Assembly (NCBI GenBank): GCA_017656185.1
Contig: JACDOK010000009.1
Location: 1,227-65,226, forward strand
From: Peptococcaceae bacterium
Lineage (GTDB): Bacteria > Bacillota > Desulfotomaculia > Desulfotomaculales > JACDOK01
DNA: 64,000 bases
Reading direction: 5' to 3'
Made by a program: the position numbers and the translations under genes. Shown here in pieces: positions 12,333 to 60,685 of the stretch; the first letter of the stretch is position 1; each line of letters begins with the position of its first letter. The notes under the pieces were generated by a model. The model had not been told where the DNA came from. It worked only from the letters and a program-made list of their open reading frames with translations, and did no database searches.

Positions 12333-12356
12333 AATTAGTTATCCGCCTTATTTTAC

Positions 12357-12440: not shown

Positions 12441-12449
12441 CATAGACGT

Positions 12450-27286: not shown

Positions 27287-27305
27287 AACCGCGTTTTTGA
27301 TTTTT
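27273..27305 (+). terminator. Rho-independent terminator of rpsT
   Basis: ACGCGGTTT-CCTA-AAACCGCGT followed by TTTTGATTTTT. It overlaps the stop codon. Confidence 0.65.
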
Positions 27306-27347
27306 AGACGGAATTAACAGGATCGATAGTAATCCTGCCTATAAGAC

Positions 27348-28382: not shown

Positions 28383-28460
28383 GACGTTACCTCCATCTAT
28401 CTTGTTGGTACTTTTTTACCATAATATATCGTGGAACGGGACAGGCGCAAAGAGAAAACG

Positions 28461-28564
28461 GCCCAGCACTCAGGGTGTAATAAGTATACATAGGAGCATA
28501 AAAGTTAATCACTGGTTAACGAACCCGATATGTGAACTATTGTTACACCTGCTGAGTGCTGGAC
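28461..28564. mobile_element. MITE-like element copy A (104 bp; GCCCAGCACTCAG...CTGAGTGCTGGAC)
   Basis: The inverted-repeat arms extend to ~20 nt (..GGGTGTAA / TTACACC.TG..), with a 78-nt AT-rich interior ending CTATTGTTA. Confidence 0.55.
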
Positions 28565-28604
28565 TGTTCAAGAAATGTATATTAAGGGAATGGGAGAAAG
28601 ACGT

Positions 28605-28662
28605 GCTAAATAAAAAACCACGAACGTCTCACTCCTTCTTGGAGAACCAAGACCTTCGTGGT
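28605..28662 (-). terminator. Orphan terminator-like hairpin on the minus strand
   Basis: ACCACGAA..(inner CTTGG-AGAA-CCAAG)..TTCGTGGT, followed on the minus strand by TTTTTTATTT. No annotated minus-strand gene lies upstream of it. Confidence 0.4.
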
Positions 28663-28907
28663 CTAATTCAAAATTTGCAATTTCTTCTTAGAAAGCTTAT
28701 ACCAAAGAGTTTTGTTGCTCCGGGCCGGCCTTCGGGCCGGTATTGTCCGGTACAAGAAGCATTTAATTATTTAATATATTATCTGTTTGTTTAAAAATTC
28801 CTTCAACAAATCTTGATAAATTTTATCTAATCTTTAACAAAACCATATTCTTCTATCAGCCGTCATAGTCAATAGAGATATATTAAACAAAGGCAAAGGA
28901 GGTCATT

Positions 28908-31157
28908 ATGAGGAAAAGGAGTTTATTGTGGACGGCGGTATTACTGGTTGTATCCCTTTGTTTTGCGGGGGCGGCGGCTGCCGGTACTGTTGTAACTGTT
29001 GTAGAGGAAGCCGTTCCGGTAAAGAAGGCAGCACCGGGCGTGCCGGCGGCCGAACCGGAAGGAGAATTGATGCTGGCCACACCGGAGGACGCCATCGAGC
29101 GGGCCAGTGAGCTTTTCCCGGCAGTGGTGCAGAGTAAGGAAAAGGAACTGGAGGTGCATTTCAGCGACAGCCGCTATGAAGGACGGAGAATGTGGCACGT
29201 GAGTTATCACCCGCACAGGCCCGGTCCGGACTACGGTTATTTCAGTGTTTCCCTGGCCGCAGACACGGGCGAGTTGTTTGGCTATAACTACCGCCCGGAA
29301 CCCGGTGCCTTGGAAGGTAAAAAACGGGTAGTTACCCGCGCGGAGGCACTGCAAATCGCACGGGCCTTTGCCCGCAAGTACCAGTCGGAAAGGCTGGCCA
29401 AGATGCAGCTGGATGCCGATTACAACCGGCATCGCTACGGGGAAGCCCTCGACCTGAGTTACGGTTTCCGCTGGCACCAGGTCATCGATGGAGTACCGTT
29501 TAATGACAACAGCATCTATGTCAGGGTGGATGCTGTGTCCGGGCAGGTTACCGATTTCCGCTGCACGTGGCGGGAAGACGGGGAACTGCCGGAGCAAGGT
29601 GCCAAAATGGACGCTGCAGCGTTCACCAGTCGGGTAGTTGAAAAACTGGGACTTTACCCTTGTTATGTTGTAGATCCGGAGACGGAGCGCACAGGACTGC
29701 CGGACGCCATCCTGGTTTATCGCCTCAACACACCTTACCACCAGTTTGATGCCGTAACAGGTAAAGCTCTGGGTCCCGGTGGCAATATAGTGGATTGGGC
29801 TGATGCCAGGAAATATGATCGGGACTTCACTCCTGTTCCGGCGCCGGAACGGGCAACGGGTTATGATCAGCTCCAAGAGCATCTCAGCCCTGTTCAGGTA
29901 CAGAAAATTGCCGCTGCCTTCTTTAAGAAGCTCGGGCTGGAAGGTCGGGTGGAACGTTCCGGGGGCGGCAGCAGCGTTGGCCCGGGCTACCGCGAGGAAT
30001 ACTGGAGCTACCGCCTGGTGCGCGAAAAACCATATGAACACCGGGAGGTCAGTATCAATGCCCGCACCGGGGAAGTGAGATCGTATCATTCCGAAATTGA
30101 CCGCGGAAAACAGGACCGTAAGGGTGAAGGCATTTCCCTGCAGGAGGCGCAGCAGGCAGCCCGGGAGTTTTTAAAGCTGGTACGGCTGGACAACCTGGAC
30201 GAAATGGTTCTGCAGCAGGAACCCGAAAATTGGAAACTGGAGATGGCCTACCCGGAGGGACCTCCTGAGTACAACTTTACATACGTGCGCTTGGTCAACG
30301 GTATACCTTATGAACAAAGTACTGTAAGTGTTTCGGTCGACCGTTTCACCGGGAAAGTTGTGCGTTTCTACAGCCACGAGCGACCGGTGAAAACTTTTGA
30401 AGCTACTGCAGGCGTATTGCCGGAAGCCAAGGCTGTGGAGGCATTTAAAGAGTACCAACCTTTTACACTGGGTTATGAACGAATGCACGACTGGGAGAAC
30501 GAAACCGAGAAGGTCGTGCTGGCTTACTGTTTAGATTACGGCTACGGCATTGATGCCCATACGGGCGAAGAGGTAAAGCGGGACGGTACCAAAAAAGAAA
30601 CGCTCTCCTATAATACCAAACTGCAGTCCCACTGGGCACGCATACCTTTAACCCTGCTGGCGGACAGTGGATTGCTTCCGCCTCCGGAGGAGTTTAATCC
30701 AAACGGGACCGTAAACCGGCGGGACGGCCTGCGCGTACTGGCAGCTGCTATGATGCGGTACTACTACCCGGAAGGCCCGACTAAGTCTCCCTTCCAGGAC
30801 GTTGCGGATAACGACAAGGATCTAATGGCGATAAAATTAGCCGTAGACCGCGGGGTTATCAAGGCCGGGGGTAAATTACGACCCGACGCTCCCCTGACGC
30901 GAGAAGACCTGGCTGTATGGCTGGTCAATGCCCTCGGTTACAAGAAAATTGCCACCGCGCCTATCGATATGGCTGTAAACTTTAAAGATGCCTCTAAGAT
31001 CGGCGAAGGTAAGAAAAATGCGGTAGCCATTGCATCAGGCCTTAATTACATGAATGGTGATCAAACCGGTAGCTTCCGCCCACGCGATCCCGTTACTTGG
31101 GCCGAGCTTGCCAGCGTAATTGTACGGGCGGCGCCGGATTTAAACTGGCGGTACTAA
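28908..31157 (+). CDS. Secreted cell-wall protein with PepSY-like repeats and C-terminal SLH-like domains
   Basis: 749 aa. Signal peptide (LLVVSLCFAGAAAAG). Repeated PepSY-like segments. The C-terminal ~180 aa has SLH-like F(Q/K)D(V/A)..G..RP...(L/V)TR(E/A)(D/E)LA patterns. RBS AAAGGAGG. Confidence 0.7.
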   Translation: MRKRSLLWTAVLLVVSLCFAGAAAAGTVVTVVEEAVPVKKAAPGVPAAEPEGELMLATPEDAIERASELFPAVVQSKEKELEVHFSDSRYEGRRMWHVSYHPHRPGPDYGYFSVSLAADTGELFGYNYRPEPGALEGKKRVVTRAEALQIARAFARKYQSERLAKMQLDADYNRHRYGEALDLSYGFRWHQVIDGVPFNDNSIYVRVDAVSGQVTDFRCTWREDGELPEQGAKMDAAAFTSRVVEKLGLYPCYVVDPETERTGLPDAILVYRLNTPYHQFDAVTGKALGPGGNIVDWADARKYDRDFTPVPAPERATGYDQLQEHLSPVQVQKIAAAFFKKLGLEGRVERSGGGSSVGPGYREEYWSYRLVREKPYEHREVSINARTGEVRSYHSEIDRGKQDRKGEGISLQEAQQAAREFLKLVRLDNLDEMVLQQEPENWKLEMAYPEGPPEYNFTYVRLVNGIPYEQSTVSVSVDRFTGKVVRFYSHERPVKTFEATAGVLPEAKAVEAFKEYQPFTLGYERMHDWENETEKVVLAYCLDYGYGIDAHTGEEVKRDGTKKETLSYNTKLQSHWARIPLTLLADSGLLPPPEEFNPNGTVNRRDGLRVLAAAMMRYYYPEGPTKSPFQDVADNDKDLMAIKLAVDRGVIKAGGKLRPDAPLTREDLAVWLVNALGYKKIATAPIDMAVNFKDASKIGEGKKNAVAIASGLNYMNGDQTGSFRPRDPVTWAELASVIVRAAPDLNWRY

Positions 31158-31199
31158 GCCCCGATGGTATAGCAACATAAGCAATCTAATGCGTCTTTG

Positions 31200-31241
31200 A
31201 GAGGCACCTGTTTTTTGACAGGTGCCTCTTCCACTTTTTTC
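31200..31241 (+). terminator. Rho-independent terminator
   Basis: AGAGGCACCTGT-TTTTTG-ACAGGTGCCTCT (12-bp perfect stem), followed by TCCACTTTTTT. Confidence 0.8.
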
Positions 31242-31438
31242 AGAAGATTATTGCTATACCCTTATCAGGGCTTTGCAGCAGGAGAGGAGATCAGCCTGAT
31301 CCGGCTGTGGTCTGGGTTATTACAGACCAAAATTGATATCATTATATGCTTATGGTTTTAAAGTACTTTTTGCAGGAAATTGGCCTTGAGAAATAAAAAC
31401 ATAGAAAAATGCAAGGTATTTTCTAACGGTGATAATTA

Positions 31439-31810
31439 ATGAAAATCGTACTAATTGCAGTATCGGGTATGTTGGGGGCTCTGGCACGCTACTTTTTAGC
31501 AGGTTGGGTCTCATCTTTGAATGGCACTGTCTTCCCTTACGGCACTTTGGTTGTTAATGTGGTAGGTAGCTTTCTCATCGGTTTCAGTGCGGTCTTGCTA
31601 TTTGACAAACTAGCGGTTGACCCGTTGTGGCGTGTTTCTATTATGATTGGCTTTCTGGGTTCTTTTACCACCTTTGCAACCTTTGAGCTGGAGACTTTGA
31701 ATCTGATTCAGGAAGGATTAGGATGGTTGGCCTTTGCCAATGTTTTCGGCAGTGTAGCTCTGGGACTGGGCGCTGCTTGGCTGGGCTTTATAACCGCACG
31801 AATGATCTAG
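31439..31810 (+). CDS. crcB: Fluoride ion channel CrcB/FEX
   Basis: 123 aa, 4 TM. GALARY.. and GFLGSFTTFATF motifs. Confidence 0.9.
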   Translation: MKIVLIAVSGMLGALARYFLAGWVSSLNGTVFPYGTLVVNVVGSFLIGFSAVLLFDKLAVDPLWRVSIMIGFLGSFTTFATFELETLNLIQEGLGWLAFANVFGSVALGLGAAWLGFITARMI

Positions 31811-31825
31811 AAAGGATTATCGGGT

Positions 31826-32179
31826 ATGGTCAAAATTAGTGGGAAGGCGAAACTGCTGCAGATCTATATCGGGGAATCCGACCGCTATAAAGGGAAGCCG
31901 TTGTACCGGGCCATAGTCAACCTGGCCAAGAAAGAAGGCCTGGCCGGGGCAACGGTAACCCGGGCTATTCTTGGATTTGGGGCCAACAGCCGCATTCACA
32001 GTGCCAATATTCTGCGTTTGTCGGAAGACCTGCCGGTAATGATAAGTATTGTTGATTCCGAGGAGTACATTAATAAAATCCTCCCCAAATTGGACGAAAT
32101 GGTGCCGGAGGGACTGATTACGGTACAGGATGTAGACATCATTAAATACCGGCCTAATCCGCAAAGTGAAAAACAGTAA
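31826..32179 (+). CDS. DUF190 (PII-like) protein commonly paired with crcB
   Basis: 117 aa. LLQIYIGESDRYKGKPLY..A.VTRAILGFG. Confidence 0.85.
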   Translation: MVKISGKAKLLQIYIGESDRYKGKPLYRAIVNLAKKEGLAGATVTRAILGFGANSRIHSANILRLSEDLPVMISIVDSEEYINKILPKLDEMVPEGLITVQDVDIIKYRPNPQSEKQ

Positions 32180-32207
32180 GTGCCCGGCTTATTCCAACGG
32201 ACTGATG

Positions 32208-32240
32208 ACCTCTACCGTAAGGTAGGGGTTTGTGTTTTAT
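32208..32240 (+). terminator. Rho-independent terminator of crcB-DUF190
   Basis: ACCTCTACC-GTAA-GGTAGGGGT followed by TTGTGTTTTAT. Confidence 0.75.
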
Positions 32241-32304
32241 GGTGGCATTCTTAATGTTCTTGCGCTTGGAGGCTAAAACGTTTTCTATATACTTCTTTAT
32301 CAAA

Positions 32305-32333
32305 TTGCCATCTTTTGGCATATACTGTATAAA
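32305..32333 (+). promoter_or_regulatory. SigA-like promoter (TTGCCA-N17-TATAAA)
   Basis: Hexamers with 17-nt spacing, ~30 nt upstream of a strong RBS (AAAGGAGG) and an 18-codon ORF. Confidence 0.4.
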
Positions 32334-32362
32334 TTAACGTTAAACAACAAAGGAGGATTATA

Positions 32363-32419
32363 ATGCTTAGGAAACGCTTCATGCTGCCGCGGGTGGCGCA
32401 CTGTAAGGGTGGCTGCTGA
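32363..32419 (+). CDS. Candidate 18-aa peptide MLRKRFMLPRVAHCKGGC
   Basis: ATG 7 nt after AAAGGAGG. Followed by a small hairpin CCCGC-TTGC-GCGGG. No homology assessable by eye. Confidence 0.25.
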   Translation: MLRKRFMLPRVAHCKGGC

Positions 32420-32473
32420 CTTTAGTCCTGGGCATGACGTTAAACTGCCCGCTACTTTTGCCCCGCTTGCGCG

Positions 32474-32690
32474 GGATTTAATTAGACAGGATTAACAGGA
32501 TTAACTAGATTAGGGTTGTTCGGGTATTTCTTTGGGGTCCGTATTTTAGACAGGATTAGACAGGATTAACAGGATTGGGGGTTTTGGGATTTTTTGGGAA
32601 TACCCAAAACAAAGAATTTTATATTCTACTGAATCTCTACTGAATTTCTACCGGATCTCTACCGGATACTCTACCGTACATTTTGGACAA
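32474..32690. repeat. Mosaic intergenic repeat locus: CAGGATT word arrays, GGGTATT/GGAATACCC modules, and a 5 x 11-nt tandem array (32624-32678)
   Basis: Five exact CAGGATT heptamers and three GGGA(T/A). 11-nt units TTCTACTGAAT/CTCTACTGAAT/TTCTACCGGAT/CTCTACCGGAT/ACTCTACCGTA. Confidence 0.75.
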
Positions 32691-32760
32691 GGGTAACCGC
32701 CGGGTTGCGGCGAAGGAATATTTATATATCGGTCAATAAATACTGGGAAAGAGTGATAAG

Positions 32761-32940
32761 TTGGTAGGGTTGCTTCTTGCACTTGTTTCTGCGTTTCTTC
32801 TCGTCACGCTGCTGGCGAAGGTGTACGGTTTACAGCGCCGGGTAAATGACTTAGGAAAGAAACTCGACGATATGGAGAAGAGACTTAAGAAAATACGCTA
32901 TGACGGTCCCTTTATTGACGTTGAGGATGAAAAAATTTAG
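32761..32940 (+). CDS. Candidate 59-aa membrane-anchored coiled-coil protein
   Basis: TTG start. VGLLLALVSAFLLVTLLA (TM) then RRVNDLGKKLDDMEKRLKKI. Below the ORF-track length cut-off. Confidence 0.35.
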   Translation: MVGLLLALVSAFLLVTLLAKVYGLQRRVNDLGKKLDDMEKRLKKIRYDGPFIDVEDEKI

Positions 32941-33004
32941 GAAGTGAGAGACTAACCGGTTCTGCGGGAGTGGTTGAAAAAAGATAATGATTAATAGCTG
33001 CAAT

Positions 33005-33628
33005 CTATTTGGCTTTGCTTTGGAAGCCCCAAGACAATATGCATTTGTCTTCTGTGTAGACGTTATTGGTTGCCCCTAGTTCAAATTTATCTGCCGACCA
33101 AGAACTTGAGAGGGAGTGATACCCGCCCTCCGATTGCTGTTCCTCGGTATATTTACCGAAGTATGTCGTATAGAATTCCTGCAGGTGTTGGTACAACTCT
33201 GTTGAGACCGTTTTATCAAGTTCATCCAGCCGAAAGTAATAGCTATACAACCGGTTATCCTTGAAATTGAACTCCAACTTGGCTTCCCTATCAAAAATGT
33301 GGATGTTTAAAAACGCTTCGTAAAGACCCCTTTTACCTAGACTCTCTAGGTCACCTTCCGGCATTAATTCACTAACGGTAGGAAAGAGACTTTTAACTTC
33401 TTCATAGCTGGCACCGAGCGGCAAGTAATTGATGAGAAGTAATTTTTCCTCATCAGTCCGCAAGGTGTAGAGGACGGGTGCGGTGTCATTGTTATCGTCA
33501 GTGTTTTGAGACTGAGAGGCAGCTTTGTACTCACTGTCGGCCTGGTTCTGACATCCTGTAAGCGGGATAGAAATCACTAAGAGCAATAAACAAAGGATTG
33601 CGTACAGGGAATATTTATGACGTGACAT
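33005..33628 (-). CDS. Hypothetical lipoprotein
   Basis: 207 aa. Signal peptide with lipobox (ISIPLTGC). RBS GAGGGGAG. Confidence 0.7.
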   Translation of the reverse strand: MSRHKYSLYAILCLLLLVISIPLTGCQNQADSEYKAASQSQNTDDNNDTAPVLYTLRTDEEKLLLINYLPLGASYEEVKSLFPTVSELMPEGDLESLGKRGLYEAFLNIHIFDREAKLEFNFKDNRLYSYYFRLDELDKTVSTELYQHLQEFYTTYFGKYTEEQQSEGGYHSLSSSWSADKFELGATNNVYTEDKCILSWGFQSKAK

Positions 33629-33732
33629 TACTTTCTCCCCTCTGTAACTAAGATGCTTTATAATCTTTATTATAATATTGACGGGAAACTATTAGAAATG
33701 GTTTTTGCCGAAAACCGTTATTTATATTGCTT

Positions 33733-33830
33733 CTGTCTGAAACAAAGCTATCTGAAACAAAGGCCCCCAAAGGAATACCCAAAACTATACTAATTTTAGT
33801 CCGGTTAATCCTGTGAATCCTGTCTAAAAT
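33733..33830. repeat. Mosaic intergenic repeat locus (reverse orientation): CTGAAACAAAG doublet, GGAATACCCAAAAC, AATCCTGTGAATCCTGTCTAA
   Basis: The reverse complement reads TTAGACAGGATTCACAGGATTAACCGGA..GTTTTGGGTATTCCTTTGGGGGCC, which matches 32483-32540. Confidence 0.7.
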
Positions 33831-33848
33831 CTGAAGGAGGTCAAAATC

Positions 33849-34307
33849 ATGAGCCAAGAGCTGAAAGAATGGTCGATCGCGGGACAAAAACTGCAGTGTC
33901 CCGTCTGCGGTCACCGGGAATTTTGGCACCGCACCACCCTTATGAACACCCGGCTGGCTACATTTGTTGGTTTTGACTGGGCCAACCAGGAAGCGGACAA
34001 CTTTGTTTGCGGCCGCTGCGGTTATGTCTTGTGGTTTATGGAACCTCCCATTGATCGTGAACAGCCGGAGAAAGTTAGTGATCCCAACGATGTTCATCCC
34101 CAGGTGCGTGCTGAAATCCGGGCCCACGTGGCTAAGAAATACAAATTGGCTTTAGGTGATATTGAGGTAAAGGGAACTCCCTTCGAGGACAAATACCTGG
34201 CTAACACCCCGGGCGGAGTGCTGGTGATAGAGTTGGGCGGTTTCAGCCCGGTTATCCGGGAATGGAACGAGGACGAAGAAGTGCGCGCGTGGTTGAAAAA
34301 AGACTAG
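33849..34307 (+). CDS. Hypothetical zinc-ribbon protein
   Basis: 152 aa. CPVCGH...CGRCGY four-Cys ribbon. RBS GAAGGAGG. Confidence 0.65.
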   Translation: MSQELKEWSIAGQKLQCPVCGHREFWHRTTLMNTRLATFVGFDWANQEADNFVCGRCGYVLWFMEPPIDREQPEKVSDPNDVHPQVRAEIRAHVAKKYKLALGDIEVKGTPFEDKYLANTPGGVLVIELGGFSPVIREWNEDEEVRAWLKKD

Positions 34308-36007
34308 GGTCCGGTGCCCATCCCGCTGATGTAGTAGCTGTCTTGGGTTTTGACAACCGTAACGAATTGCACCTTGCCTTTGATCCAGTCTCCCTCCATT
34401 CGGCCGTTGCCTGCGGTCCAGTAAGTGTGGGGCACGGTGGGTTTAACGTCGAAATCAACCGTGAAAACGAACCCGTTTTCTTTAAGTTCAGTAACCTGGA
34501 CGGTATTGATCCTGTATGCCTCAAGCCTGGCCTGATCGGCAAATTCCGGCGCTTGAAACCGTTCAAGGTGCTGCTTAAACAACGACTTGCCTATCTCTTC
34601 CCATGTCCGTCCCCGGGCTTCTTCTTGTGATACTGCTGCCCGGTAGACAGTGTTGGTGATCTGCGCCCGGTCGATCTCAAACGTCCAGGGACCGTCGACC
34701 TGCACGGTAGGTTTCTTAAAGATTAGTTCTACTTCATTACCTTCCGATAGGTTATCCGGGTATATTTTGAAATAGAGTATTTGGCCGGTCTGTTGATCGA
34801 GTTTAGCCATCCATCCCCAGCTTGGGTGATCTGATACCGGATCGACTTTAAACCCGATCAATGTACGTAGGGTGGGCTTTCCGAGGTCGACGTTGACCTG
34901 CAGCACCCTCCCGTTTAGCGTCTGTACTTTCGTAATAGTGAATGTACTGCGACCCAGGCTAACGCTTTTGTTTAAAACGTGCGATGCTCCTTCCTCCGGG
35001 ATGGGCAGCTTCACCCTAGCTTCACCTGGTTCTTCAATGACTAGGGCAGGTATGGCAAGATTAAGCACATCGCTGGCTGCATCGACGGCTGCAAAGCGCA
35101 GGTTTTGCGTATTGTTTTCAAGCAATTCATATACTTTGCCGGTGTCATCTTTCAGTACCGGCAAAGTTTTCTGCCGTGGATAGTCCCCCACGCTAACCAC
35201 CTTTGATTTGGGATGGTCTAACTGAAATACCAGGTTTGTCACCAGCTCAGTGTCCCGCAATTCCGGGACAGCCGTAATGGTAATACCTTGGGCTGACGCC
35301 GAAATCCCCACTTCATCCAGACCGGCAAGGGAGTCCCCCTTTACTAGGTAAATACGCGTGGTTAGTTCTTCGTGGCCTGGAATTACCAGCTGTACATAAC
35401 TGGTGTCTTGCGGCAAAGGGGCAAAGCGGAACCAACCTTCTACGGGTCCGTTACCACCGCTGTAGGTATGACTGCTTTTGGTGAGGAGTTTTGCTCCGTC
35501 TTCATCAATAAGGTATGGTTTTTCAAACCTCGCGTCTATGCGCCATACGTTGGTCGCTCTGATGTGTAAATCCGTCTTCTCGTTATTACCGCAGAGCCCT
35601 AGTATCTCAAGCCTTTTTTTACCGCTTTCGACCACTAAGGGGCTGGCGGCGGCAAGAAATCCCGGCTCTTCACCATCCTCAACACTGATACCGGCAGTAA
35701 AACCAGGCACGTAGCGTAACAGCCCTTCGATCCCGGCAACTACCTTTTGCGGCCCGGCAGCAATCGTGAAGACAACGGCGAGTATCAGGACGGCAGCAGC
35801 AACTCTGATGCTGAATGCATACCAAAACGGCATCCGCTTTTTACAGGATGACCGGGACATGGTGCGTTCTTTAATGCGGTTCAAAGACCCTGCGGGGGGC
35901 ACCGGGCCTTCCTGGTCCAGCCAATCTGCCAGGTCTTCGGGCATCCCTGCCGCGTTCAGCTCTTTGATAAACTCCTGTTCTTCAGGGCTGAATTCCTTTG
36001 TATCCAC
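34304..36007 (-). CDS. Putative anti-sigma factor (single-pass membrane protein with a large extracytoplasmic domain)
   Basis: Follows the ECF sigma gene. A GTG at 36007 overlaps the sigma stop (TAGTG) and is preceded by GGGGTGA. One TM segment (FSIRVAAAVLILAVVFTIAAG). The ORF-track start of 36070 would overlap the sigma gene by 64 nt. Confidence 0.6.
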   Translation of the reverse strand: MDTKEFSPEEQEFIKELNAAGMPEDLADWLDQEGPVPPAGSLNRIKERTMSRSSCKKRMPFWYAFSIRVAAAVLILAVVFTIAAGPQKVVAGIEGLLRYVPGFTAGISVEDGEEPGFLAAASPLVVESGKKRLEILGLCGNNEKTDLHIRATNVWRIDARFEKPYLIDEDGAKLLTKSSHTYSGGNGPVEGWFRFAPLPQDTSYVQLVIPGHEELTTRIYLVKGDSLAGLDEVGISASAQGITITAVPELRDTELVTNLVFQLDHPKSKVVSVGDYPRQKTLPVLKDDTGKVYELLENNTQNLRFAAVDAASDVLNLAIPALVIEEPGEARVKLPIPEEGASHVLNKSVSLGRSTFTITKVQTLNGRVLQVNVDLGKPTLRTLIGFKVDPVSDHPSWGWMAKLDQQTGQILYFKIYPDNLSEGNEVELIFKKPTVQVDGPWTFEIDRAQITNTVYRAAVSQEEARGRTWEEIGKSLFKQHLERFQAPEFADQARLEAYRINTVQVTELKENGFVFTVDFDVKPTVPHTYWTAGNGRMEGDWIKGKVQFVTVVKTQDSYYISGMGTGP

Positions 36008-36567
36008 TATTTCACCCCTGTATTTCCGTTGGTGAGCAGTTGTTCCTTCATCTTTTGGCGGATACGCCACAAACGGTTGTGTACGGCCTGCTGTGTCAAA
36101 CCGTAATCCCGGGCCAGCCGGTCAATGCTCTCAAAACAGTAGTACCGCCGGTATACCATTTCCCGGTCAAAGGCGTCGAGGTCCTGTAGTATTTTGCGCA
36201 GTACCTGCCGGGACTCAACGCAGTTAAATTCGTCTTCAGAGCGGTGGTCCGGCCGGAGGTCGCTAATAACTGCCGCCGTTTCCCTGCTGCGGGACAGGCG
36301 CCGTCTGGCGTCGAGGGCCTGGTATTTGGCCAGCATCAAAAGCCAGGTGCGGAAGGAACCGCGTTCCGACTCGTATTCCCAGATGCGTCCCCAGGCCGCG
36401 AGAAAGACATCGCTGACACATTCCTCGATGTCTTCTTGTCCGCCCTGGCCGGACAGGATGCGGGCGCACAAGGCATAAACAGGTTTACCGTATTTATCGA
36501 TGGCACTGGCCAGACTGCTGCTGTTGCGCTGCAGTATTCCGTCAACAAGTAAACGATCTTCTTCCAC
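36007..36567 (-). CDS. ECF-type RNA polymerase sigma-70 family factor
   Basis: 186 aa. Region 2 (DVFLAAW..ERGSFRTWL) and region 4 (ESIDRLARDYGLTQQAVHNRLWR). Confidence 0.85.
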   Translation of the reverse strand: MEEDRLLVDGILQRNSSSLASAIDKYGKPVYALCARILSGQGGQEDIEECVSDVFLAAWGRIWEYESERGSFRTWLLMLAKYQALDARRRLSRSRETAAVISDLRPDHRSEDEFNCVESRQVLRKILQDLDAFDREMVYRRYYCFESIDRLARDYGLTQQAVHNRLWRIRQKMKEQLLTNGNTGVK

Positions 36568-36796
36568 GGTGCACCTCTGGAATTAAGAATCGATAGAACA
36601 ATGATATGACATTGTACTTCTGCCTTCCTTGGGTCGTCCTAAATCTCTTCACCCTAAAGGCTGCTTTTACTTCTTACTACGTTCCGATACAGGGGATTTT
36701 CCCAAAGAATTTTTATTGGTACACAGAAGGTGTCACGCTTACGTCAAACCATTACCTGCTGTATCGCGTCTTGATAATGAGAATGTGCAAGGGAAG

Positions 36797-37324
36797 ATGA
36801 TACAAGTGAAAATCAGTGCCTTGATAAAGAATATTGGCTGGTGGGGGGCAGTCCCTGCCGTCCTGGCGGCCTTTTTAATCCTCGGTTTTAAAGTGATGGA
36901 GCAGAGCTTCAATGCAACTACGGCGCGTGTTCTGCTCATTATTGCCGTATGGTATACGGTAGGAATAGTAGGGTATGGTTTCGGCCTCAACAAGTATTAC
37001 CGTTTAAAGCTTACGACCCGGCAGGTATCAACCGTACTTTTTGTAACCGGCCTTTTAAGTATCGTCTTTGTTAGTGCTGCAGCGTATCTTTGGCTTTTTC
37101 CAGGTGGGGAGTATCGTAATCCTGGTGGCCCCGGCGGTTTATTCGGGAGTATTCTTCTGGCTCTTTTAAGCCTATGGCTTTCCTTTTCGGCAAGTATCAG
37201 TGTTTTAGCGCGTCTTTCCTGGAAAAGGTTCGGGGTGGTGCTTCTGATTACCGGAGCAATCCTGGGCTTATGGACGTTTCTTTTGTTATTCTTATTTATG
37301 GGTGGGTTTCAACCGGGCATTTAG
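36797..37324 (+). CDS. Hypothetical polytopic membrane protein
   Basis: ~5 hydrophobic helices. Start chosen at the ATG (MIQVKISALIKN); the upstream part of ORF 36629 looks non-coding. Confidence 0.55.
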   Translation: MIQVKISALIKNIGWWGAVPAVLAAFLILGFKVMEQSFNATTARVLLIIAVWYTVGIVGYGFGLNKYYRLKLTTRQVSTVLFVTGLLSIVFVSAAAYLWLFPGGEYRNPGGPGGLFGSILLALLSLWLSFSASISVLARLSWKRFGVVLLITGAILGLWTFLLLFLFMGGFQPGI

Positions 37325-37364
37325 TATGGCCGTTTTAAGTGAGCGGTAAGGTGGGGAAAGGTCT

Positions 37365-38321
37365 ATGATCATAAGTGCCAGCAGGAGAACAGATATACCG
37401 GCGTTTTACAGTGAGTGGTTTATTAACAGGGTAAAAGAGGGTTTTTGCGTTACTGTCAACCCGTTTAACAGGAAGCAGAAGAAACTTGTGAGTTTACGTC
37501 CCGAAGATGTGACGGCTATTGTATTCTGGTCCAAAAACCCTGCTCCTCTCATGAAATATTTGGACTACCTGGATGCAATGGGTTACCGCTACTACTTTGG
37601 ATTTACGCTAAACAACTATCCTTCCGAATTAGAACCCAATGTTCCTGAGGTCAAAACCAGAATAAACACCTTTAAGCGCCTCAGCCAAAGACTGGGTAAG
37701 AAGAGGGTAATATGGAGGTATGACCCGATAGTACTATCAAATAAAACACCTATCGACTTCCATATTGGGAATTTTGAGTTTTTAACAAAAGAGCTCAAGG
37801 ACTATACCTGTAAATGTGTTTTTAGCTTTTTAGAGCTATATCCCAAGGTTCAAAAAAGGATTAATAAAATGCACAAAGAATACGGTTTCGCCGTCCAGGA
37901 CATCCGCAGCGAAAAACATAAGCAGATTCTAAAGAGTTTGGTGATGCAGTTTAAATCTATTGCAGATTCGTATGGGTTAGATCTCCGATCTTGCGCGGAA
38001 AAAATGGATTTAACTCCGTATGGAATCAAGCCGAATTCCTGTATCGACGGTAACTTAATAAATGAGATGCCGGGTACGAATGTACCGTTTAAAAAAGACA
38101 GAAATCAGCGCAGAGAGTGTTTGTGTATCGAAAGTATAGACATCGGCATGTATAACACGTGTCTTAACCAGTGTGTTTATTGCTACGCGAATTACAGCGC
38201 TAAGACCGCGGAAGCAAATAATCGAGCCCATGATAAATTTAGCCCGGTATTGATCGGCAACCTAAACGACATAGACCTAAGTAAATTTAAGAAATATCAT
38301 AGTCAGAGAACATTGTTTTAA
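37365..38321 (+). CDS. DUF1848 domain protein (Cys-rich C-terminus, probable Fe-S)
   Basis: 318 aa. MIISASRRTDIPAFYSEWF is the characteristic N-terminus. C-terminal CLCIES..CLNQCVYCYAN. Confidence 0.8.
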   Translation: MIISASRRTDIPAFYSEWFINRVKEGFCVTVNPFNRKQKKLVSLRPEDVTAIVFWSKNPAPLMKYLDYLDAMGYRYYFGFTLNNYPSELEPNVPEVKTRINTFKRLSQRLGKKRVIWRYDPIVLSNKTPIDFHIGNFEFLTKELKDYTCKCVFSFLELYPKVQKRINKMHKEYGFAVQDIRSEKHKQILKSLVMQFKSIADSYGLDLRSCAEKMDLTPYGIKPNSCIDGNLINEMPGTNVPFKKDRNQRRECLCIESIDIGMYNTCLNQCVYCYANYSAKTAEANNRAHDKFSPVLIGNLNDIDLSKFKKYHSQRTLF

Positions 38322-38340
38322 ACCTTTCCACTAGTGCTTT

Positions 38341-38550
38341 AGTATTCCTGTCTGCCATTGCCGGCCCTGAGTGCTGGACCCCTACATTTTCAGTGAACAG
38401 TAAGCAGTGAACAGGAAACAGGAAACGGTTGAATAGAGTAAAGAAAATTCCTGCTTCCTACTTCCTGGTTAGTCAATTACAGGTATTTTTGACGGGATTG
38501 ACAGGATTAACTGGATTGGATAAGGGTTTTAGGGTATTCCTCTGTGCTGT
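38341..38550. repeat. Mosaic intergenic repeat locus containing all modules
   Basis: Contains TATTCCTGTCTGCC, a solo arm CTGAGTGCTGGAC (38367-38379), and TGAACAGTAAGCAGTGA (38394-38410). Also contains CAGGAAACAGGAAAC, GACGGGATTGACAGGATTAACTGGATTGG and GGGTATTCCTCTG. Confidence 0.75.
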
Positions 38551-38556
38551 GTAAGT

Positions 38557-38633
38557 GGGGTCAGGTCTTGACATTTGACACAATCTTTTATTCGGCTGTG
38601 AAGGCTTATTGTCAAATGTCAAGACCTGACCCC
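38557..38633. repeat. 77-bp perfect palindromic element (24-bp arms, 29-nt spacer)
   Basis: GGGGTCAGGTCTTGACATTTGACA ... TGTCAAATGTCAAGACCTGACCCC with no mismatch. Confidence 0.9.
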
Positions 38634-38651
38634 TTGTTTGTTGGGGAACCT

Positions 38652-38680
38652 TTGCTTTCCCTTTCTTTAGTTGCTATAAT
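38652..38680 (+). promoter_or_regulatory. SigA-type promoter for lepA (TTGCTT-N17-TATAAT, with extended TG)
   Basis: TGCTATAAT extended -10 element, ~40 nt upstream of the lepA GTG start. Confidence 0.45.
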
Positions 38681-38720
38681 TGATTGGATAGTCTGAGATG
38701 TGATGTCGAGGTGTTAGGTC

Positions 38721-40532
38721 GTGCCAAAGGCCCAAGATCATATTCGCAATTTCTGCATCATTGCCCATATCGACCACGGCAAATCAACCCTGGCCGACCG
38801 CCTGCTGCAGTTTACCGGAGCTTTGACCGAGCGGGAAATGCAGGACCAGGTGTTGGATACCATGGACCTGGAGCGGGAGCGCGGTATAACGATCAAACTG
38901 CAGGCTGTACGGCTTATGTACCGGGCCCGTGACGGGCAGGAATACCAGCTGAATCTCATCGACACTCCGGGACACGTGGACTTTTCCTATGAGGTGTCGC
39001 GCAGCCTGGCGGCCTGTGAGGGTGCCCTGCTGGTCATCGACGCCACCCAGGGTATTGAGGCGCAGACCCTGGCTAACGTGTATATGGCCCTTGACCACGA
39101 CTTAACCATTATTCCCGTGATCAACAAGGTGGACCTGCTGAGCGCCGACCCGGACGCGGTCCGGCGGGAAATCGAAGATGTTCTCGGTTTTGACGGCAGT
39201 ACCGCCATTCTGGCTTCGGCAAAGACAGGTGCCGGTGTACCCGAAATTCTCGAGCGCATTGTTGCGGATATCCCGGCCCCAACTGGCGATGCTGGTGACC
39301 CTTTGCGCGCGCTGATCTTCGATTCCCATTACGATTCCTATAAAGGCGTCATTGCCTACGTCCGGGTAATGGACGGTTGTTTGCGTAAGGGAATGCCTAT
39401 TCAGATGATGTCAAGCGGTAAAGAATTTGAAGTTAGCGAGGTGGGCGTTTTCCGCCCGGTACCGGTGGTGGTGGATGAACTGCGTGCTGGCGAGGTCGGT
39501 TTTGTCGCAGCCTCTATCAAAAACGTAAAGGACAGCCGCGTGGGCGACACCATTACCGATGCCCGCCGCCCGGCGTCAGAGCCCTTACCCGGGTACCGCA
39601 AGGCCAAGCCGATGGTCTTTTGCGGTTTATACCCGGTAGAATCCAGCGATTTCGAACGCCTGCGGGACGCGCTGGACAAGCTGGCCCTTAACGATGCCTC
39701 GCTGGTTTATGAACCGGAAACCTCCAAGGCGCTGGGGTTCGGGTTCCGCTGTGGCTTCCTGGGCTTGCTCCACATGGAAATCATCCAGGAACGCCTGGAA
39801 AGAGAGTATGGTCTGGAACTGGTAACGACGGCTCCCAGTGTCGTTTACCGTGTCACCAAAACCAGCGGCGAGGTCGTCGAGGTTCAAAATCCCTATGACT
39901 TGCCCCCGGCCGGTAAGGTTGTCAAAACAGAAGAACCTTTTGTGTTGTGTACTATAATGCAGCCCCAAGATTATATCGGGGCCGTGATGGAAATCTGCCA
40001 GGAGCGGCGCGGTGTGTTCCGCAATATGGAGTATGTCAGCGAAAACAGGGTCATTTTGACTTATGAACTCCCGCTTTCAGAGATTATTTATGACTTTTTC
40101 GATCGCTTGAAGTCCGCTACGCGCGGTTATGCTTCACTTGACTATGAGGTTTTGGGCTACCGCGAGGCCGACCTGGTCCGGTTGGATATCCTGGTAGCCG
40201 GGGAGCCGTTGGATGCCCTGTCCAGTATCGTACACCGTGACAAAGCCTACCACCGCGGTAGGGCCATTGTAGAGAGCCTGTGCAAATTAATCCCGCGCCA
40301 TTATTTTGAGATTCCTGTCCAAGCTGCGATCGGCCAGAAGGTTATCGCCCGGGAAACGATCAAGCCCCTGCGCAAGAACGTGCTGGCCAAGTGTTATGGC
40401 GGTGATGTCACCCGCAAGCGCAAACTCCTGGAAAAACAGAAAGAAGGCAAAAAACGGATGAAGCAGGTCGGCAGAGTGGAAATTCCGCAGGAGGCCTTTA
40501 TGTCCGTGCTGAGTGTTGGTGATAACGAGTGA
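38721..40532 (+). CDS. lepA: Translation elongation factor 4
   Basis: 603 aa. [37 protein letters not shown] start with RBS GAGGTG. Confidence 0.95.
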
Positions 40533-42824: not shown

Positions 42825-44385
42825 TTGAGCTTAAAGCAGCAGGCCAGCCAGGGCTCAGAGATAAACGAGCGCCTGGCGGCCTTAATGACCAATGCCAATG
42901 CCATCCGGGCCATTGCCTCCGCGGTGGAAGGTACCCTTGGGCCTAAGGGGCTGGACACAATGCTTGTGGACCAGTTCGGTGATGTAGTTATCACCAATGA
43001 CGGGGTAACCATTCTTACCCGCATGGAGGCCACCCACCCGGCGGCGCGTATGATGATCAACATTGCGCGGGCCCAGGAAGAGGAAGTGGGCGACGGTACC
43101 ACTACGGCTACGGTCATGACCGGGCAAATGGTGCAGACTGGTGTTGACCTTGTGGCTAAGGGGGTTCCTGTAGCCCGTGTCATCGAAGGTTTGCGTCTGG
43201 GGTTGAAGCATGCCCTTGATTTGATGGAACGGGAAGCGCAGGCCGTAAACGGGCTCGACGATCCCCGTGTACGCCAGGTAGCTTTGGTGGCCGGGCGTGA
43301 GCACGGGGATATTGCCGATTTGGTAGTACAGGCGGCCAAGTTGGTAGGAGAGGAAAAACTACGGGACTCCTTTTTTAAATTGTCTGATACGGTAGAGGCG
43401 CGGGAAAACGCCCAAAACGTCGTATTTGAGGGTGTAATTATTAACAAGACACCGGTAAACCGGCAGATGCCCCGCCGGGTTGAAAATACAGCCGTGCTGG
43501 TCCTGGACGATGCCCTGGAACCCGAAGAGATCGAAGACGAGGCCCTGGCGACAGAAGCCGGGTTCAGCCGTTACCTGCAACTCCAGAAAGAATTTAAAAG
43601 CAACTTGCATAAATTGGTCGAACTGGGCGTAGGATTGGTGCTGGTGGACCGTAGCGTAGCGGACAGTGCCGAGGAGATTCTTACCGATGCCGGCATAATG
43701 GTGGTCCAACGGGTATTAAATAAGGAACTGCGCAAAGCAGCGGAGCACACCGGAGCGCGCATGTTAAAACGTACGGGTTTGAAGAAAAATAAGGAAGAAC
43801 TGGCCCGTTATCTCGGGCGCGCGCGTTTCGTGGTGTACGACGAAAAGCTGGAACAGGTTTGGATCCGGGAAGGTGCCGGCAAGCCTATGGCCACGATACT
43901 GGTAGGAGCCGCTACCGAAGAGGTGGTCGGTGAGAGGGAGCGTATTGCCAGAGATGCCGCCGGTGCGGTACAGGCCGCCGTGAAAGGTGGTGTGGTGCCG
44001 GGAGGCGGTTCACTCGAGCTTTGGATAGCCCGTGAAGTGGAAAAAATACGTGAAAACGTCCGAGGCATGTCCGGGCACGGTGTGGCCTGCGTAGTGGAAG
44101 CCCTGAAACGCCCGCTGGCACAGATTGTGGAGAATGCGGGATTTAACGCCTTGGAGAAAATCGGTGATGTTATCGCCGCCCAATCCGAAAGCGGCAATAA
44201 GGCCCTGGGCATAGACTGTGACAGCGGTGAAGTGCGTGACATGTTGGAGGCCGGCGTGGTGGATCCCGCACCGGTCAAGATTTACGCCTTGAGAGCGGCG
44301 GGGGAAATCGCCGAAGCTATTCTGCGGATTGACACCATTATCAAAAAGCGGGATGAAAGACACGAGAGTAAGGGGGCAACAGGTG

Positions 44386-44393
<8 letters not shown>
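42825..44393 (+). CDS. Thermosome/TCP-1-type (archaeal-like) chaperonin encoded inside the dnaK operon
   Basis: 522 aa. GTLGPKGLDTMLV, ITNDGVTIL, EVGDGTTTATV (group II chaperonin signatures). TTG start with RBS AAGGAGG. Confidence 0.88.
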
Positions 44394-49711: not shown

Positions 49712-49800
49712 GCAGGAAGCAGGAATTAAGGAATTTGTTGCGTTTTAAGGTTCCTGTATTTGCTACTTAATTACTGACCCTGATGGGGATGTGTTTAACT

Positions 49801-54450: not shown

Positions 54451-54517
54451 TAAGCAGTTGGTAAGCAGTAAGTAGTAAAAAGTGAGGAGTGAGGCAGAGG
54501 GTAATTGGTAATTAAGA
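54448..54517. repeat. GTAAGCAGT / GTGAGGAGTGAGG word module starting at the yqfC stop codon
   Basis: TAGTAAGCAGTTGGTAAGCAGTAAGTAGTAAAAAGTGAGGAGTGAGGCAGAGGGTAATTGGTAATTAAG, with stops in all three frames. Confidence 0.7.
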
Positions 54518-54581
54518 TGATCTTAACTTTCTTTAGATATGACCTCAAAGGAATGCTTTTAAGTCCTACCGTAGTATCACA

Positions 54582-54682
54582 GCCCAGCACTCAGTGAATA
54601 ATAGAAGTTTTCCGTGATCTTTATGGTTTTTCAACGTTACTTTGATGCGCTATCTATCAGTAATTACCCCTGAGTGCTGGGC
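54582..54682. mobile_element. MITE-like element copy C (101 bp) between yqfC and yqfD
   Basis: GCCCAGCACTCAG - 75 nt AT-rich interior - CTGAGTGCTGGGC. The interior aligns to copies A and D in reverse orientation. Confidence 0.6.
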
Positions 54683-54731
54683 GAATCACAGTGAGCGAAG
54701 CGGACGTATCACACCGACCGGAGGGAGCGAA

Positions 54732-59104: not shown

Positions 59105-59549
59105 TTTTCAAGAGGATACCCTGTTGGATGACGCCCTCGAATCTCTGGCGGAACGGGCTGTAGAGGAAACGCTGGCTGCCGAAGGTCGCGGGGATGTTGT
59201 TGAAGTAAGCGTGGCATTCGTCGATGACGAATACATGCACCGTCTCAATAAGAATTACCGGGGTATTGACCGCACGACGGATGTTCTGGCTTTTCCAATG
59301 AATGAGGAGGACCCTGGTGCTCCCGGCGAGGAACCGCATTTGATGCTCGGGGACATTGTTATTTCCCTGCCGGCAGCGCAGCGGCAGGCTGCAGAGTACG
59401 GGGTTTCTTTGGAACAGGAAGTGGCCCGCCTAGCGGTCCACGGTGCTCTGCACCTGTTAGGTTACGATCACGAAAAGGGCGGAGAAGAGGCCGAGCGGAT
59501 GCGAGAGAGGGAGAATGAGATTCTTGAACGGGTAATCGGTAAGCAGTAA
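59085..59549 (+). CDS. ybeY: rRNA maturation endoribonuclease YbeY
   Basis: TDVLAFP..., HGALHLLGYDH metal-binding motif. ATG at 59085. Confidence 0.9.
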   Translation: MAIIVSNFQEDTLLDDALESLAERAVEETLAAEGRGDVVEVSVAFVDDEYMHRLNKNYRGIDRTTDVLAFPMNEEDPGAPGEEPHLMLGDIVISLPAAQRQAAEYGVSLEQEVARLAVHGALHLLGYDHEKGGEEAERMRERENEILERVIGKQ

Positions 59550-59580
59550 GCAATGAACAGTAAGCAGTGAGGAGTGAGCG
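59538..59580. repeat. GTAAGCAGT / TGAACAGTAAGCAGTGA / GGAGTGAG word module overlapping the ybeY stop codon
   Basis: GGTAAGCAGTAAGCAATGAACAGTAAGCAGTGAGGAGTGAGCG. The 17-mer TGAACAGTAAGCAGTGA is identical to 38394-38410. Confidence 0.75.
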
Positions 59581-59605
59581 TAACTTATGTAGAACGTAGG
59601 GCGGT

Positions 59606-59708
59606 GCCCAGCACTCAGGGCTGATTACCATAAGTAAGAGCGTTAAGAGTCGAGTTATATGAACAAGAAGGGACATTTGAATGCTCTATTGTTGACTGAG
59701 TGCTGGGC
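59606..59708. mobile_element. MITE-like element copy D (103 bp) between ybeY and cdd
   Basis: GCCCAGCACTCAG - 77 nt - CTGAGTGCTGGGC, followed by GTATCACAG and the cdd RBS. Confidence 0.6.
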
Positions 59709-59740
59709 GTATCACAGCGACCATAAGGGAGTGAAGTTTT

Positions 59741-60133: not shown

Positions 60134-60149
60134 TTACAATGGAATATCC

Positions 60150-60248
60150 GGTAGAGATCCAATAGAGATCCGGTTGAGATCCGGTAGAAACACAGTGGAA
60201 ACACAATAGAGACACGGTGGAGACACAGTAAAGATCCGGTAGAAATCC
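60150..60248. repeat. Tandem array of nine exact-phase 11-nt units (consensus RGTAGAGAYCC)
   Basis: Units: GGTAGAGATCC AATAGAGATCC GGTTGAGATCC GGTAGAAACAC AGTGGAAACAC AATAGAGACAC GGTGGAGACAC AGTAAAGATCC GGTAGAAATCC. Followed by GGAATACCCGAAA. Confidence 0.9.
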
Positions 60249-60358
60249 GGAATACCCGAAATCTATGTTTGGATTCCTTTGAGATTACGGGAGGGTTACA
60301 AACCTCCCCTGCGTTCTATAGTAGTTACTTAGGAATAGGAAGGTAGTCCAATAACGTC

Positions 60359-60685
60359 TTACTTTGATAAGGTTTGTAGTTTCTCTTCCTGGTTAGTTAA
60401 ACGGTTGTCAAGCTTTTTAATGTCATCCCAAATATAGCACAGCTCTTTGCGAATCTTTTTCTGGCCGTTTTCCAGGCGAATTAAGCGTTCTTCAAGCGCC
60501 GCCTGGCCCTTTTCAAGCGTTGCCTGGCCTTTTTCAAGTACCGCCTGGCCCTTTTCAAGCGCCGCCTGGCCCTTTTCCAGGCGTTCAAGGCGCTGGCCCT
60601 GGGCTATTTGCTCACGACGCAATTCATCTTGCCCTTGACGCAGTTCCTTGAGCTCTGCCAGGATTTGTTCCAAAACTTTTTCCAT
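60359..60685 (-). CDS. Hypothetical coiled-coil protein with four LEKGQAx heptad repeats
   Basis: 108 aa. ..RLERLEKGQAALEKGQAVLEKGQATLEKGQAALEERLIRLENGQ.. No recognisable catalytic or DNA-binding motif. Confidence 0.6.
   Translation of the reverse strand: MEKVLEQILAELKELRQGQDELRREQIAQGQRLERLEKGQAALEKGQAVLEKGQATLEKGQAALEERLIRLENGQKKIRKELCYIWDDIKKLDNRLTNQEEKLQTLSK
60492..60575. repeat. 4 x 21-nt tandem repeat inside the coiled-coil gene
   Basis: TCAAGCGCCGCCTGGCCCTTT x4 with 1-3 substitutions per unit. Encodes the heptads. Confidence 0.9.

Follow-up and report, generated by a model that had tools for sequence, protein, structure and literature searches.

The spacer between the DUF1848 gene (37365-38321) and lepA (38721-40532) in a Peptococcaceae bacterium is crowded with short repeats, which raises the question of whether these repeats belong to a single family. 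The DNA in which it lies, hereafter the window, is a stretch of 64,000 nucleotides from a Peptococcaceae metagenome-assembled genome (MAG); its LepA is 100% identical to an NCBI protein of that MAG, the next-nearest LepA is 82% identical, and a Logan contig is identical to the window. The original prediction held that seven repeat modules at positions 38341-38550, inside the 399-bp spacer (38322-38720), form one mosaic family organised like the bacterial interspersed mosaic elements (BIMEs) of Escherichia coli. Our analysis does not bear out a single family. The 210-bp stretch is a lineage-specific non-coding spacer, and it contains fragments of at least two unrelated non-autonomous palindromic repeat families, which occur independently of each other across genomes and are both found in other phyla.

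The seven module strings themselves are all present where they had been placed. Two reported identities hold as well: CTGAGTGCTGGAC at 38367-38379 matches 28552-28564 at 13 of 13 positions and corresponds to the right arm of an inverted-repeat copy at 28461-28564 (copy A), and TGAACAGTAAGCAGTGA at 38394-38410 is identical to 59554-59570 over 17 of 17 positions. In addition, an all-against-all comparison of intergenic DNA returned a 38-nt match at 89% identity to a distant locus. The modules had been said to recur at seven or more other intergenic sites. Related pieces are indeed present at nine (12356, 27304, 28461-28564, 32482-32680, 33772-33827, 49713, 54460-54715, 59537-59720 and 60146-60257), but the first and fifth modules (M1 and M5) lack a second copy at 80% identity or more. 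All that recurs of M5 is a 14-nt match in reverse complement (49714-49727), of M1 the short minus-strand core ACAGGAAT and of M7 the core GGGTATTCC, whose context varies. Tandem Repeats Finder and a repeat finder resolve most of the locus into short tandem arrays, and the seven modules cut arbitrarily across a smaller number of objects and are not independent units. The layout of these arrays, with one array followed by its inverse and a 9-mer array running into a G-rich box, indicates that M3, M4 and M5 are one object and that M6 and M7 are another.

The repeats of the window can be described as family A, which comprises arrays of 9-, 10- and 11-mers, and family B, an inverted-repeat element with 12-nt arms. 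When the 36 intergenic regions of the window were compared all against all, the repeats fell into two networks, and 38322-38720 is the only spacer that joins both by sequence match. The networks occupy six and four of the 36 spacers, and random placement would let them share one or more spacers in 54% of trials if it is uniform and in 75% if it is weighted by length, so the shared spacer is no more than chance would give in the window (P=0.54-0.75). Modules of one family were expected to co-occur above their individual frequencies; within the window they match chance. Outside the window, we found no ACNGGATNN arrays in 647 kb around 97 family B elements, as against five in the 64-kb window, and 626 kb around the 9-mer arrays of family A (at least 120 listed) held two one-mismatch family B arms only, which is near the chance expectation. 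This lack of mutual co-occurrence indicates that each family has a host range of its own and that the two simply happen to occur together in this MAG.

Family B is built from CCCAGCACTCAG, an interior of about 75 nt, and CTGAGTGCTGGG, giving an element of about 98 bp with 12-nt inverted arms. The window has seven matches to the arm motif GYCCAGCACTCAGB, where shuffled sequence predicts 0.00, and three full copies are present. Copy A (28461-28564) is bare and lies between the divergent holA and YcdB/SLH genes. Copy B (54582-54682) is part of a plus-strand composite at 54460-54715, upstream of yqfD, together with a heptamer array (54460-54494) and flanking TATCACAG/AATCACAG repeats. Copy C (59606-59708) belongs to a second plus-strand composite (59537-59720) in the ybeY-cdd spacer, where the heptamer array (59537-59583) overlaps the ybeY stop codon and CGTATCACAG follows the element. 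Both composites have the same order, namely heptamer array, about 40 nt, inverted-repeat element and GTATCACAG. Single TATCACA/AATCACA heptads stand on both sides of copy B (54573-54714), after copy C (59708-59717) and, free of any element, at 12411-12420; they could represent a target site or a duplication. At the locus under study, family B is represented by the solo right arm CTGAGTGCTGGAC (38367-38379, plus strand). This arm, which carries a GGAC variant, has no partner about 87 nt upstream and is the only unpaired arm within the window, and it is most likely a decayed or truncated copy.

The distribution of family B was examined by scanning one genome per species (596 Gb) with the pattern CCCAGCACTCAG-N65-95-CTGAGTGCTGG. 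The scan returned 88 stretches with 97 further full elements in 18 other genomes; by our own arithmetic, a pattern with 23 fixed bases should match fewer than once by chance in 596 Gb. The hosts include several Bacillota MAGs (one of which, MAG044, carries dozens of copies), a Thermoanaerobacteraceae MAG, Ammonifex, Desulforudis, Desulfofundulus, Desulfovirgula and two Syntrophomonadaceae, in addition to four Patescibacteria (locus GC 0.36-0.46) and one Burkholderiales. The Bacillota hosts are thermophilic or subsurface organisms, and overall the hosts range in GC content from 0.36 to 0.62 and belong to different phyla.

Comparison of 100 copies shows which properties of family B are kept. Total length is 90-107 nt, the arms start about 87 nt apart, and the element folds as a long hairpin (z -3.8 to -5.0 for the window copies). 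The interiors, 67-84 nt long, fall into 29 clusters by shared 8-mers, and those of the three window copies are unrelated to one another and to all others; judged by eye, some clusters may be distantly related. The spacer between the arms thus keeps its length and folding capacity and not its sequence. RNAalifold on 25 copies of cluster 0 returned no shared interior fold beyond the arm stem and two tiny helices, and single-sequence folds of the interiors differ among clusters. The 12-nt arm has no internal complementarity, and a 4-bp GCCC/GGGC stem can be added in some copies only. All copies are intergenic, with 98 of the 100 outside crude open reading frame (ORF) calls; the remaining two are a product of this crude calling, and one of the two calls is spurious. 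Of 295 arms with one mismatch or none, 252 (85%) occur as left-right pairs 70-110 nt apart, in loci that had been preselected for an exact pair. Between identical outer flanks the element may be replaced by a 5-nt filler or by a 16-nt hairpin, and one interior type is seen in both orientations relative to its flanks. In MAG044, MAG002 and Yes71-27 the element lies inside a composite some 300 nt long (L027:4450-4900, L062:2950-3200, L065:4400-4700 and L071:2380-2620), which contains the common motif GAAAGAAGTACTATTTTC and stops about 15 nt before the ribosome-binding sites of genes unrelated to one another (dnaK, rpoC and galU).

Family A in the window has the core AC-N-GGA-T/A. At the locus, the 9-mer array TTGACGGGA TTGACAGGA TTAACTGGA (M6, 38489-38518, plus strand) is a half copy of the family A palindrome, with the 9-mer ACNGGATTN. 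Of the ACAGGATT-array palindromic element it provides one arm and lacks the inverse one, and the G-rich box GGGTTTTAGGGTATTCC (M7, 38524-38540, plus strand) is joined directly to its end. The block that contains it (38480-38556) folds no better than its shuffles (z +0.8). M1, TATTCCTGTCTGCC (38343-38356, minus strand), contains one array core, ACAGGAAT, and is similar to the end found on the right (..ATCCTGTC) in 9-mer-array elements; with 38534-38547 it makes up a 14-nt direct repeat, of which it is the left copy. Two direct repeats bracket the array block, 38342-38355 with 38534-38547 (86%) and 38366-38376 with 38539-38549 (82%), and GTATTCCTCTGTGCTG (38534-38549, plus strand) is a degenerate direct repeat of both left-hand copies.

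Complete family A elements were recovered from metagenomes with ACRGGATTNACAGGATT, where a lone 17-mer may match by chance in such a collection; the tandem 9-mer form of the array is (ACAGGATTN)3. At least 120 metagenome contigs carry a 9-mer array, in hosts with GC contents of 0.33-0.71. Among the matches listed, about 45 contigs hold the array and its inverse 1-125 nt apart (55-100 nt in total), the hairpin stands in convergent, tandem and divergent intergenic contexts alike, and no neighbouring gene recurs. A typical hairpin consists of GACAGGATTnACAGGATTnACAGGAT, a loop and ATCCTGTnAATCCTGTnAATCCTGTC, has arms of three or so tandem 9-mers (NACAGGATT) and is about 65 nt long (for example L176:6364-6423 and L215:2507-2577, among contigs L095-L216). 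The same hairpin is present, unannotated and intergenic, in plasmids of Spirosoma oryzicola (Bacteroidota) and Candidatus Thiodictyon syntrophicum (Gammaproteobacteria), and a phage collection contained none. The window copies of family A are degenerate, mostly a single arm plus the G-rich box typical of this genome.

Within the window, the G-rich box (GGGTTTT..GGGTATTCC) usually follows the 9/10-mer arrays, as at 12356, 32482, 32546, 33827 (reverse complement) and 38489. At 60249-60257 on the minus strand, GGGTATTCC is found next to an 11-mer array as well. On the plus strand, 12356-12420 holds an array with GGGTTTTAG followed by CGTATCACAG, which also flanks copies B and C, and 27304-27345, between the convergent rpsT and holA, holds a short array that ends in a CAGGAT..ATCCTG mini-hairpin. 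The densest site (32482-32680, plus strand) combines a 9-mer array with its G box, a 10-mer array with a G box and the palindrome GGGAATACCC, and an 11-mer array, TCTACCGGATC. A unit in reverse orientation (33772-33827, minus strand) is 87% complementary over 31 nt to 32482-32512. Minus-strand 11-mer arrays at 60146-60257, ATCCGGTAGAG and GAAACACAGTG, end in GGAATACCC and are the inverse of 32625-32676; the arrays at 32625-32676 and 60146-60248 are inverse copies 27 kb apart, with 78-81% identity over 43-55 nt. The inverted 9-mer arrays at 32482 and 33827 span 1.28 kb and look transposon-like, and an autonomous element was considered there and rejected, as the segment has no transposase; what it contains is a lipoprotein gene (33005-33628, minus strand), a membrane ORF of 59 aa and an 11-mer array. 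Just before these arrays, 32364-32420 contains an 18-codon ORF, MLRKRFMLPRVAHCKGGC, with a strong ribosome-binding site and a terminator-like hairpin.

The remaining object at the locus is a pair of heptamer arrays. M3 and M4 together form the array CAGTGAA CAGTAAG CAGTGAA CAGGAAA CAGGAAA C (38391-38426, plus strand), and M5 is an inverse array, TTCCTGC TTCCTAC TTCCTGG (38448-38468, minus strand). The segments 38401-38424 and 38448-38471 are 75% complementary and form an imperfect hairpin with 24-nt arms and a 23-nt loop, with a predicted DNA fold of -10.8 kcal/mol (z -1.9). The other heptamer arrays of the window are those at 54460-54494 and 59537-59583; the units in the window are CAGTGAA, CAGTAAG, CAGGAAA and GTAAGCA, and GTTCAAC and others occur in related genomes, where cluster-0 copies of family B lie between similar GTTCAAC-type heptamers. 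In the family B loci, period 7 accounts for 79 of 143 intergenic tandem repeats. Such arrays are enriched within 150 nt of the elements (27 observed against 12.5 expected, P=4e-5, among copies that are not mutually independent), which supports an association of heptamer arrays with the inverted-repeat element. In one Burkholderiales MAG (L037:1-310), the 12-nt arm lies within inverted heptamer arrays (CAGCACC CAGCACT CAGTACC ...), a layout that hints at a heptamer array as the origin of the arms.

Downstream of the locus, a perfect 24-nt inverted repeat, GGGGTCAGGTCTTGACATTTGACA and its inverse (38557-38633, plus strand), which the original prediction had not included, has a 29-nt loop, a T-rich tail and a very stable fold (z -9.5). 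It is unique in the window and is probably the transcript-end hairpin of DUF1848; its 13-nt core, AAGACCTGACCCC, also occurs in a metagenome contig (L121). TTGCTATAAT stands after this hairpin, which is itself upstream of a putative lepA promoter, TTGCTT-17-TATAAT with the extended -10 box TGCTATAAT (38653-38670, plus strand), which a consensus scan did not return. Relatives with 80-82% LepA identity have lepA upstream regions of 82-314 nt that carry the same TGCTATAAT box and none of the repeats. Because a strong T-tailed hairpin and then a box common to the lepA genes of relatives lie downstream, the locus would belong to the DUF1848 transcript's untranslated 3′ part, with a terminator-like hairpin and the lepA promoter downstream of it.

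How, then, did pieces of both families come to lie between DUF1848 and lepA? On balance, we favour the view that this spacer is a permissive site in which fragments of selfish or neutral small palindromic repeats have accumulated, and the locus itself appears to have no function of its own. By analogy with REPINs, hairpins formed by two repetitive extragenic palindromic (REP) sequences, and with MITEs, which are miniature transposable elements with inverted repeats, family B would spread as a hairpin-forming mobile unit on which a sequence-specific enzyme acts in trans, and the solo arm at 38367 would be an immobile remnant. The arrays would grow by slippage and be dispersed with, or attracted to, family B elements, and those at 38391-38468 would be of the heptamer kind that lies beside family B. 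Of family A, one arm would survive here, fused to the G-rich box.

Several observations weigh against this account. No transposase, REP-associated tyrosine transposase (RAYT) or recurrent gene lies next to either family in the fetched loci, and mobility is therefore suggested by architecture alone. Likewise, no HUH/Y1 motif or tblastn match was found in the window or the 88 element-bearing loci, an unrelated gene on contig L090 being the only match, and the fetched DNA contains neither long-range arm pairs that enclose an ORF nor a parent insertion sequence with the same ends. Target-site duplications are inconsistent: copy B is flanked by TATCACAG/AATCACAG, cluster-0 copies stand between GTTCAAC-type heptamers that resemble each other, and other copies show no duplication. 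The exact conservation of the 12-nt arms is in part built into the search pattern. Their presence across phyla, in hosts with GC contents of 0.36-0.62, is not usual for REPINs and might instead indicate a conserved function in the cell. Two further points blur the line between the families: the spacer at 12333-12650 also sets a family A array beside CGTATCACAG, the flank motif of family B, and the 7-, 9-, 10- and 11-mer arrays of the window have the common core AC-N-GGA-(T/A), which hints at a common binding motif or at a common origin linking families A and B.

The alternative that survives best is that the arrays and hairpins are functional, although we consider it unlikely. In this explanation, the 7- to 11-mers with the core ACNGGAW would be a platform for a protein, either a ribbon-helix-helix DNA binder or a single-strand RNA binder like Csp or CsrA, and the hairpins would act in transcript ending or processing and insulate DUF1848 from lepA. 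The core motif is enriched about twofold in intergenic DNA and is concentrated in about six spacers, and the locus would lie in the untranslated 3′ part of DUF1848, ahead of the very stable hairpin at 38557-38633. In addition, where the flanking genes of family B copies are co-directional, the more stable RNA strand matches their direction in 34 of 49 cases, and elsewhere the element stands at a fixed distance upstream of the dnaK, rpoC and galU ribosome-binding sites. Heptamer arrays in other organisms have also been proposed as regulator binding sites (PMC4679880).

Nevertheless, the spacing of the units varies (7, 9, 10 and 11), so helical phasing is not constant, and the orientation of the arrays relative to transcription is mixed in the window. 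The 9-mer hairpins stand in convergent, tandem and divergent contexts alike, the block at 38480-38556 folds no better than chance, the GGA cores would be base-paired in the hairpin form, and the lepA regions of relatives do without the repeats. Readings of the CsrA type (GGA) and of the omega type (WATCACW heptad) are what we take to be leads only, as spacing and orientation are inconsistent and WATCACW occurs as isolated single heptads.

Slightly less probable still is a single BIME-like mosaic system, in which one repertoire of motifs is arranged in varied orders by one machinery, for example a REP-associated Y1 transposase with host factors. Heptamer arrays accompany family B in several genomes, flanks and interiors are shuffled like cassettes, the 7-, 9-, 10- and 11-mers of the window have the core in common, and parts of both networks are present in the spacers 38322-38720 and 12333-12650. 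Moreover, L090, the contig of the closest LepA relative, encodes a 276-aa Y1_Tnp protein flanked by inverted repeats. Against these points stand the absence of 9-mer arrays near the 97 family B elements and of arms near the listed 9-mer arrays, as well as the agreement of the co-occurrence in the window with chance. The Y1/HUH motif is lacking from the window and the element-bearing loci, the repeat beside the L090 Y1_Tnp gene is a different one, and the arms, not being self-palindromic, are not REPs.

We can also imagine, at similarly long odds, that the arms CCCAGCACTCAG/CTGAGTGCTGGG mark a cross-phylum system of thermophilic Bacillota and Patescibacteria in which a sequence-specific enzyme swaps or inverts cassettes of about 75 nt at hairpin apices. 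Such a system would be a new small cassette or mobile system rather than an ordinary MITE, and the ACAGGATT 9-mer hairpin would be a second, pan-bacterial element with a partner of its own. Finally, the notion that the locus is only low-complexity DNA, produced by slippage in a neutral spacer and coincidentally like other loci, is very improbable, for although all modules except the arm are tandemly repetitive and M1 and M5 have no good second copy, the 17/17 and 13/13 identities and the 38-nt match at 89% to distant loci, the arm motif at seven occurrences against none expected, and the same arrays and arms in many other genomes argue against it.

An accumulation of fragments from separate repeat families, which we favour, can be set against the known systems that these repeats resemble. 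REPINs have been described as conserved inverted ends at a fixed distance, with a spacer that is kept only in length and in its capacity to form a hairpin, and their doublets outnumber singlets, which are taken as remnants (PMC3116915). Family B is alike in its inverted ends at a fixed distance (about 87 bp, compared with 71 or 110 bp in Pseudomonas fluorescens), in being strictly extragenic, in the large excess of doublets over singlets and in its clustered, nested or mosaic arrangements. It differs in that its 12-nt arms are not palindromes and lack a GTAG-type head, that no RAYT was found near any copy in the fetched loci, and that many unrelated spacer types occur within and between genomes. 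REPIN populations are not known to be other than lineage-specific, whereas the same family B arms are found in Bacillota, Patescibacteria and one Burkholderiales MAG. BIMEs, whose building blocks are REP doublets, consist of palindromic units that alternate in orientation between a few linker motifs of a fixed set, and they are bound by IHF, DNA gyrase or DNA polymerase I. The likeness to BIMEs stands to the extent that intergenic pieces combine modularly and that the arm element resembles a REP doublet; it does not extend to a single family. Family B arms alternate in orientation at a fixed spacing, but the locus itself has only one arm, with tandem arrays rather than linkers as its other modules. 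That the sequences are unrelated to REP was correct, in that no module is similar to the E. coli REP and the arms (CCCAGCACTCAG) are not self-complementary.

Bacterial MITEs include Correia, ERIC, RUP and Nezha. Family B shares with them a length of about 100 bp, the lack of coding sequence, terminal inverted repeats, multiple intergenic copies and hairpin potential, and it likewise sits within operons without disrupting them (ybeY-cdd and yqfC-yqfD). Unlike MITEs, it has no parent insertion sequence that we could find and no consistent target-site duplication, its conserved sequence often extends beyond the arms, and its interior is far more variable than its ends. Among intergenic heptamers, the short tandemly repeated repetitive (STRR) sequences of cyanobacteria are comparable, and TAACTGA arrays have been described in intergenic DNA of Beggiatoaceae, cyanobacteria and Bacteroidetes (MacGregor 2015, PMC4679880). 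The arrays analysed here resemble both in their tandem 7-nt units (2-7 copies), their intergenic position, the mixing of several heptamers in one spacer and a patchy cross-phylum spread with no evident transfer mechanism. Their units, however, differ from TAACTGA, CCCCAGT, TTGGTCA and CAACAGT, their host belongs to the Bacillota, and they are often inverted, lie beside a 12-nt-armed hairpin and show no preference for positions before start codons. The nested, mosaic intergenic DNA also recalls the small dispersed repeats of Nostoc, 21-27 nt long, which Elhai and co-workers reportedly described in 2008 as inserting into one another and into hairpin apices; those repeats differ in sequence and host, and here arrays stand with a 98-bp element. 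A cyanobacterial HIP1/STRR origin was considered and discarded, as the window has a single GCGATCGC and is not HIP1-rich, and a cyanobacterial source is also excluded by the gene order lepA-hemN-hrcA-grpE-dnaK-dnaJ-prmA, the sporulation genes and the LepA matches, all of which indicate a Peptococcaceae MAG.

The wider neighbourhood of the locus differs from that of its relatives. Some 10 kb of accessory genes separate holA from lepA (28383-38720), encoding a YcdB/SLH protein, crcB, DUF190, an extracytoplasmic function (ECF) sigma factor and DUF1848. In relatives this interval holds spoIIP and glycosyltransferases instead, and repeat-rich spacers mark the joints in the window. Downstream, a group II chaperonin gene (thermosome-like, Cpn60_TCP1; 42825-44393) is located between hrcA and grpE in the dnaK operon, as it is in the relatives L091 and L093. 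In L090, the 276-aa Y1_Tnp (HUH) gene (5186-6016) is placed between hemN and hrcA, has inverted AAGTGCCTGGCAC repeats on either side and is a candidate RAYT/REP pair, in sequence unrelated to the window arms. A 21-nt tandem repeat at 60491-60577 (4 copies, 84%) falls within a 108-aa coiled-coil ORF on the minus strand and encodes EKGQAxL heptads. The window as a whole has no tRNA or tmRNA gene and no Rfam 15 match at the gathering score, the family B element and the 9-mer hairpin giving only sub-threshold chance matches.

Our analysis brings out two repeat families that are both without an Rfam model, and no relevant paper with the exact sequences of either was found in open-access PMC and bioRxiv. 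The locus itself is best regarded as a dump of small repeats and is not suited to annotation as a regulatory element. In practical terms, such repeats are a hazard because they break MAG assemblies and can give rise to spurious ORF calls. Family B is of interest for the same 12-nt ends across phyla and GC contents of 0.36-0.62 with an interior that is free to vary, and family A for its breadth, which takes in Bacteroidota and Gammaproteobacteria as well as this Bacillota MAG. Should there be a partner enzyme, the REPIN/RAYT idea would be extended outside Proteobacteria, or a new route of mobilisation would be revealed, and it would also provide a handle on the long-unexplained intergenic heptamer arrays.

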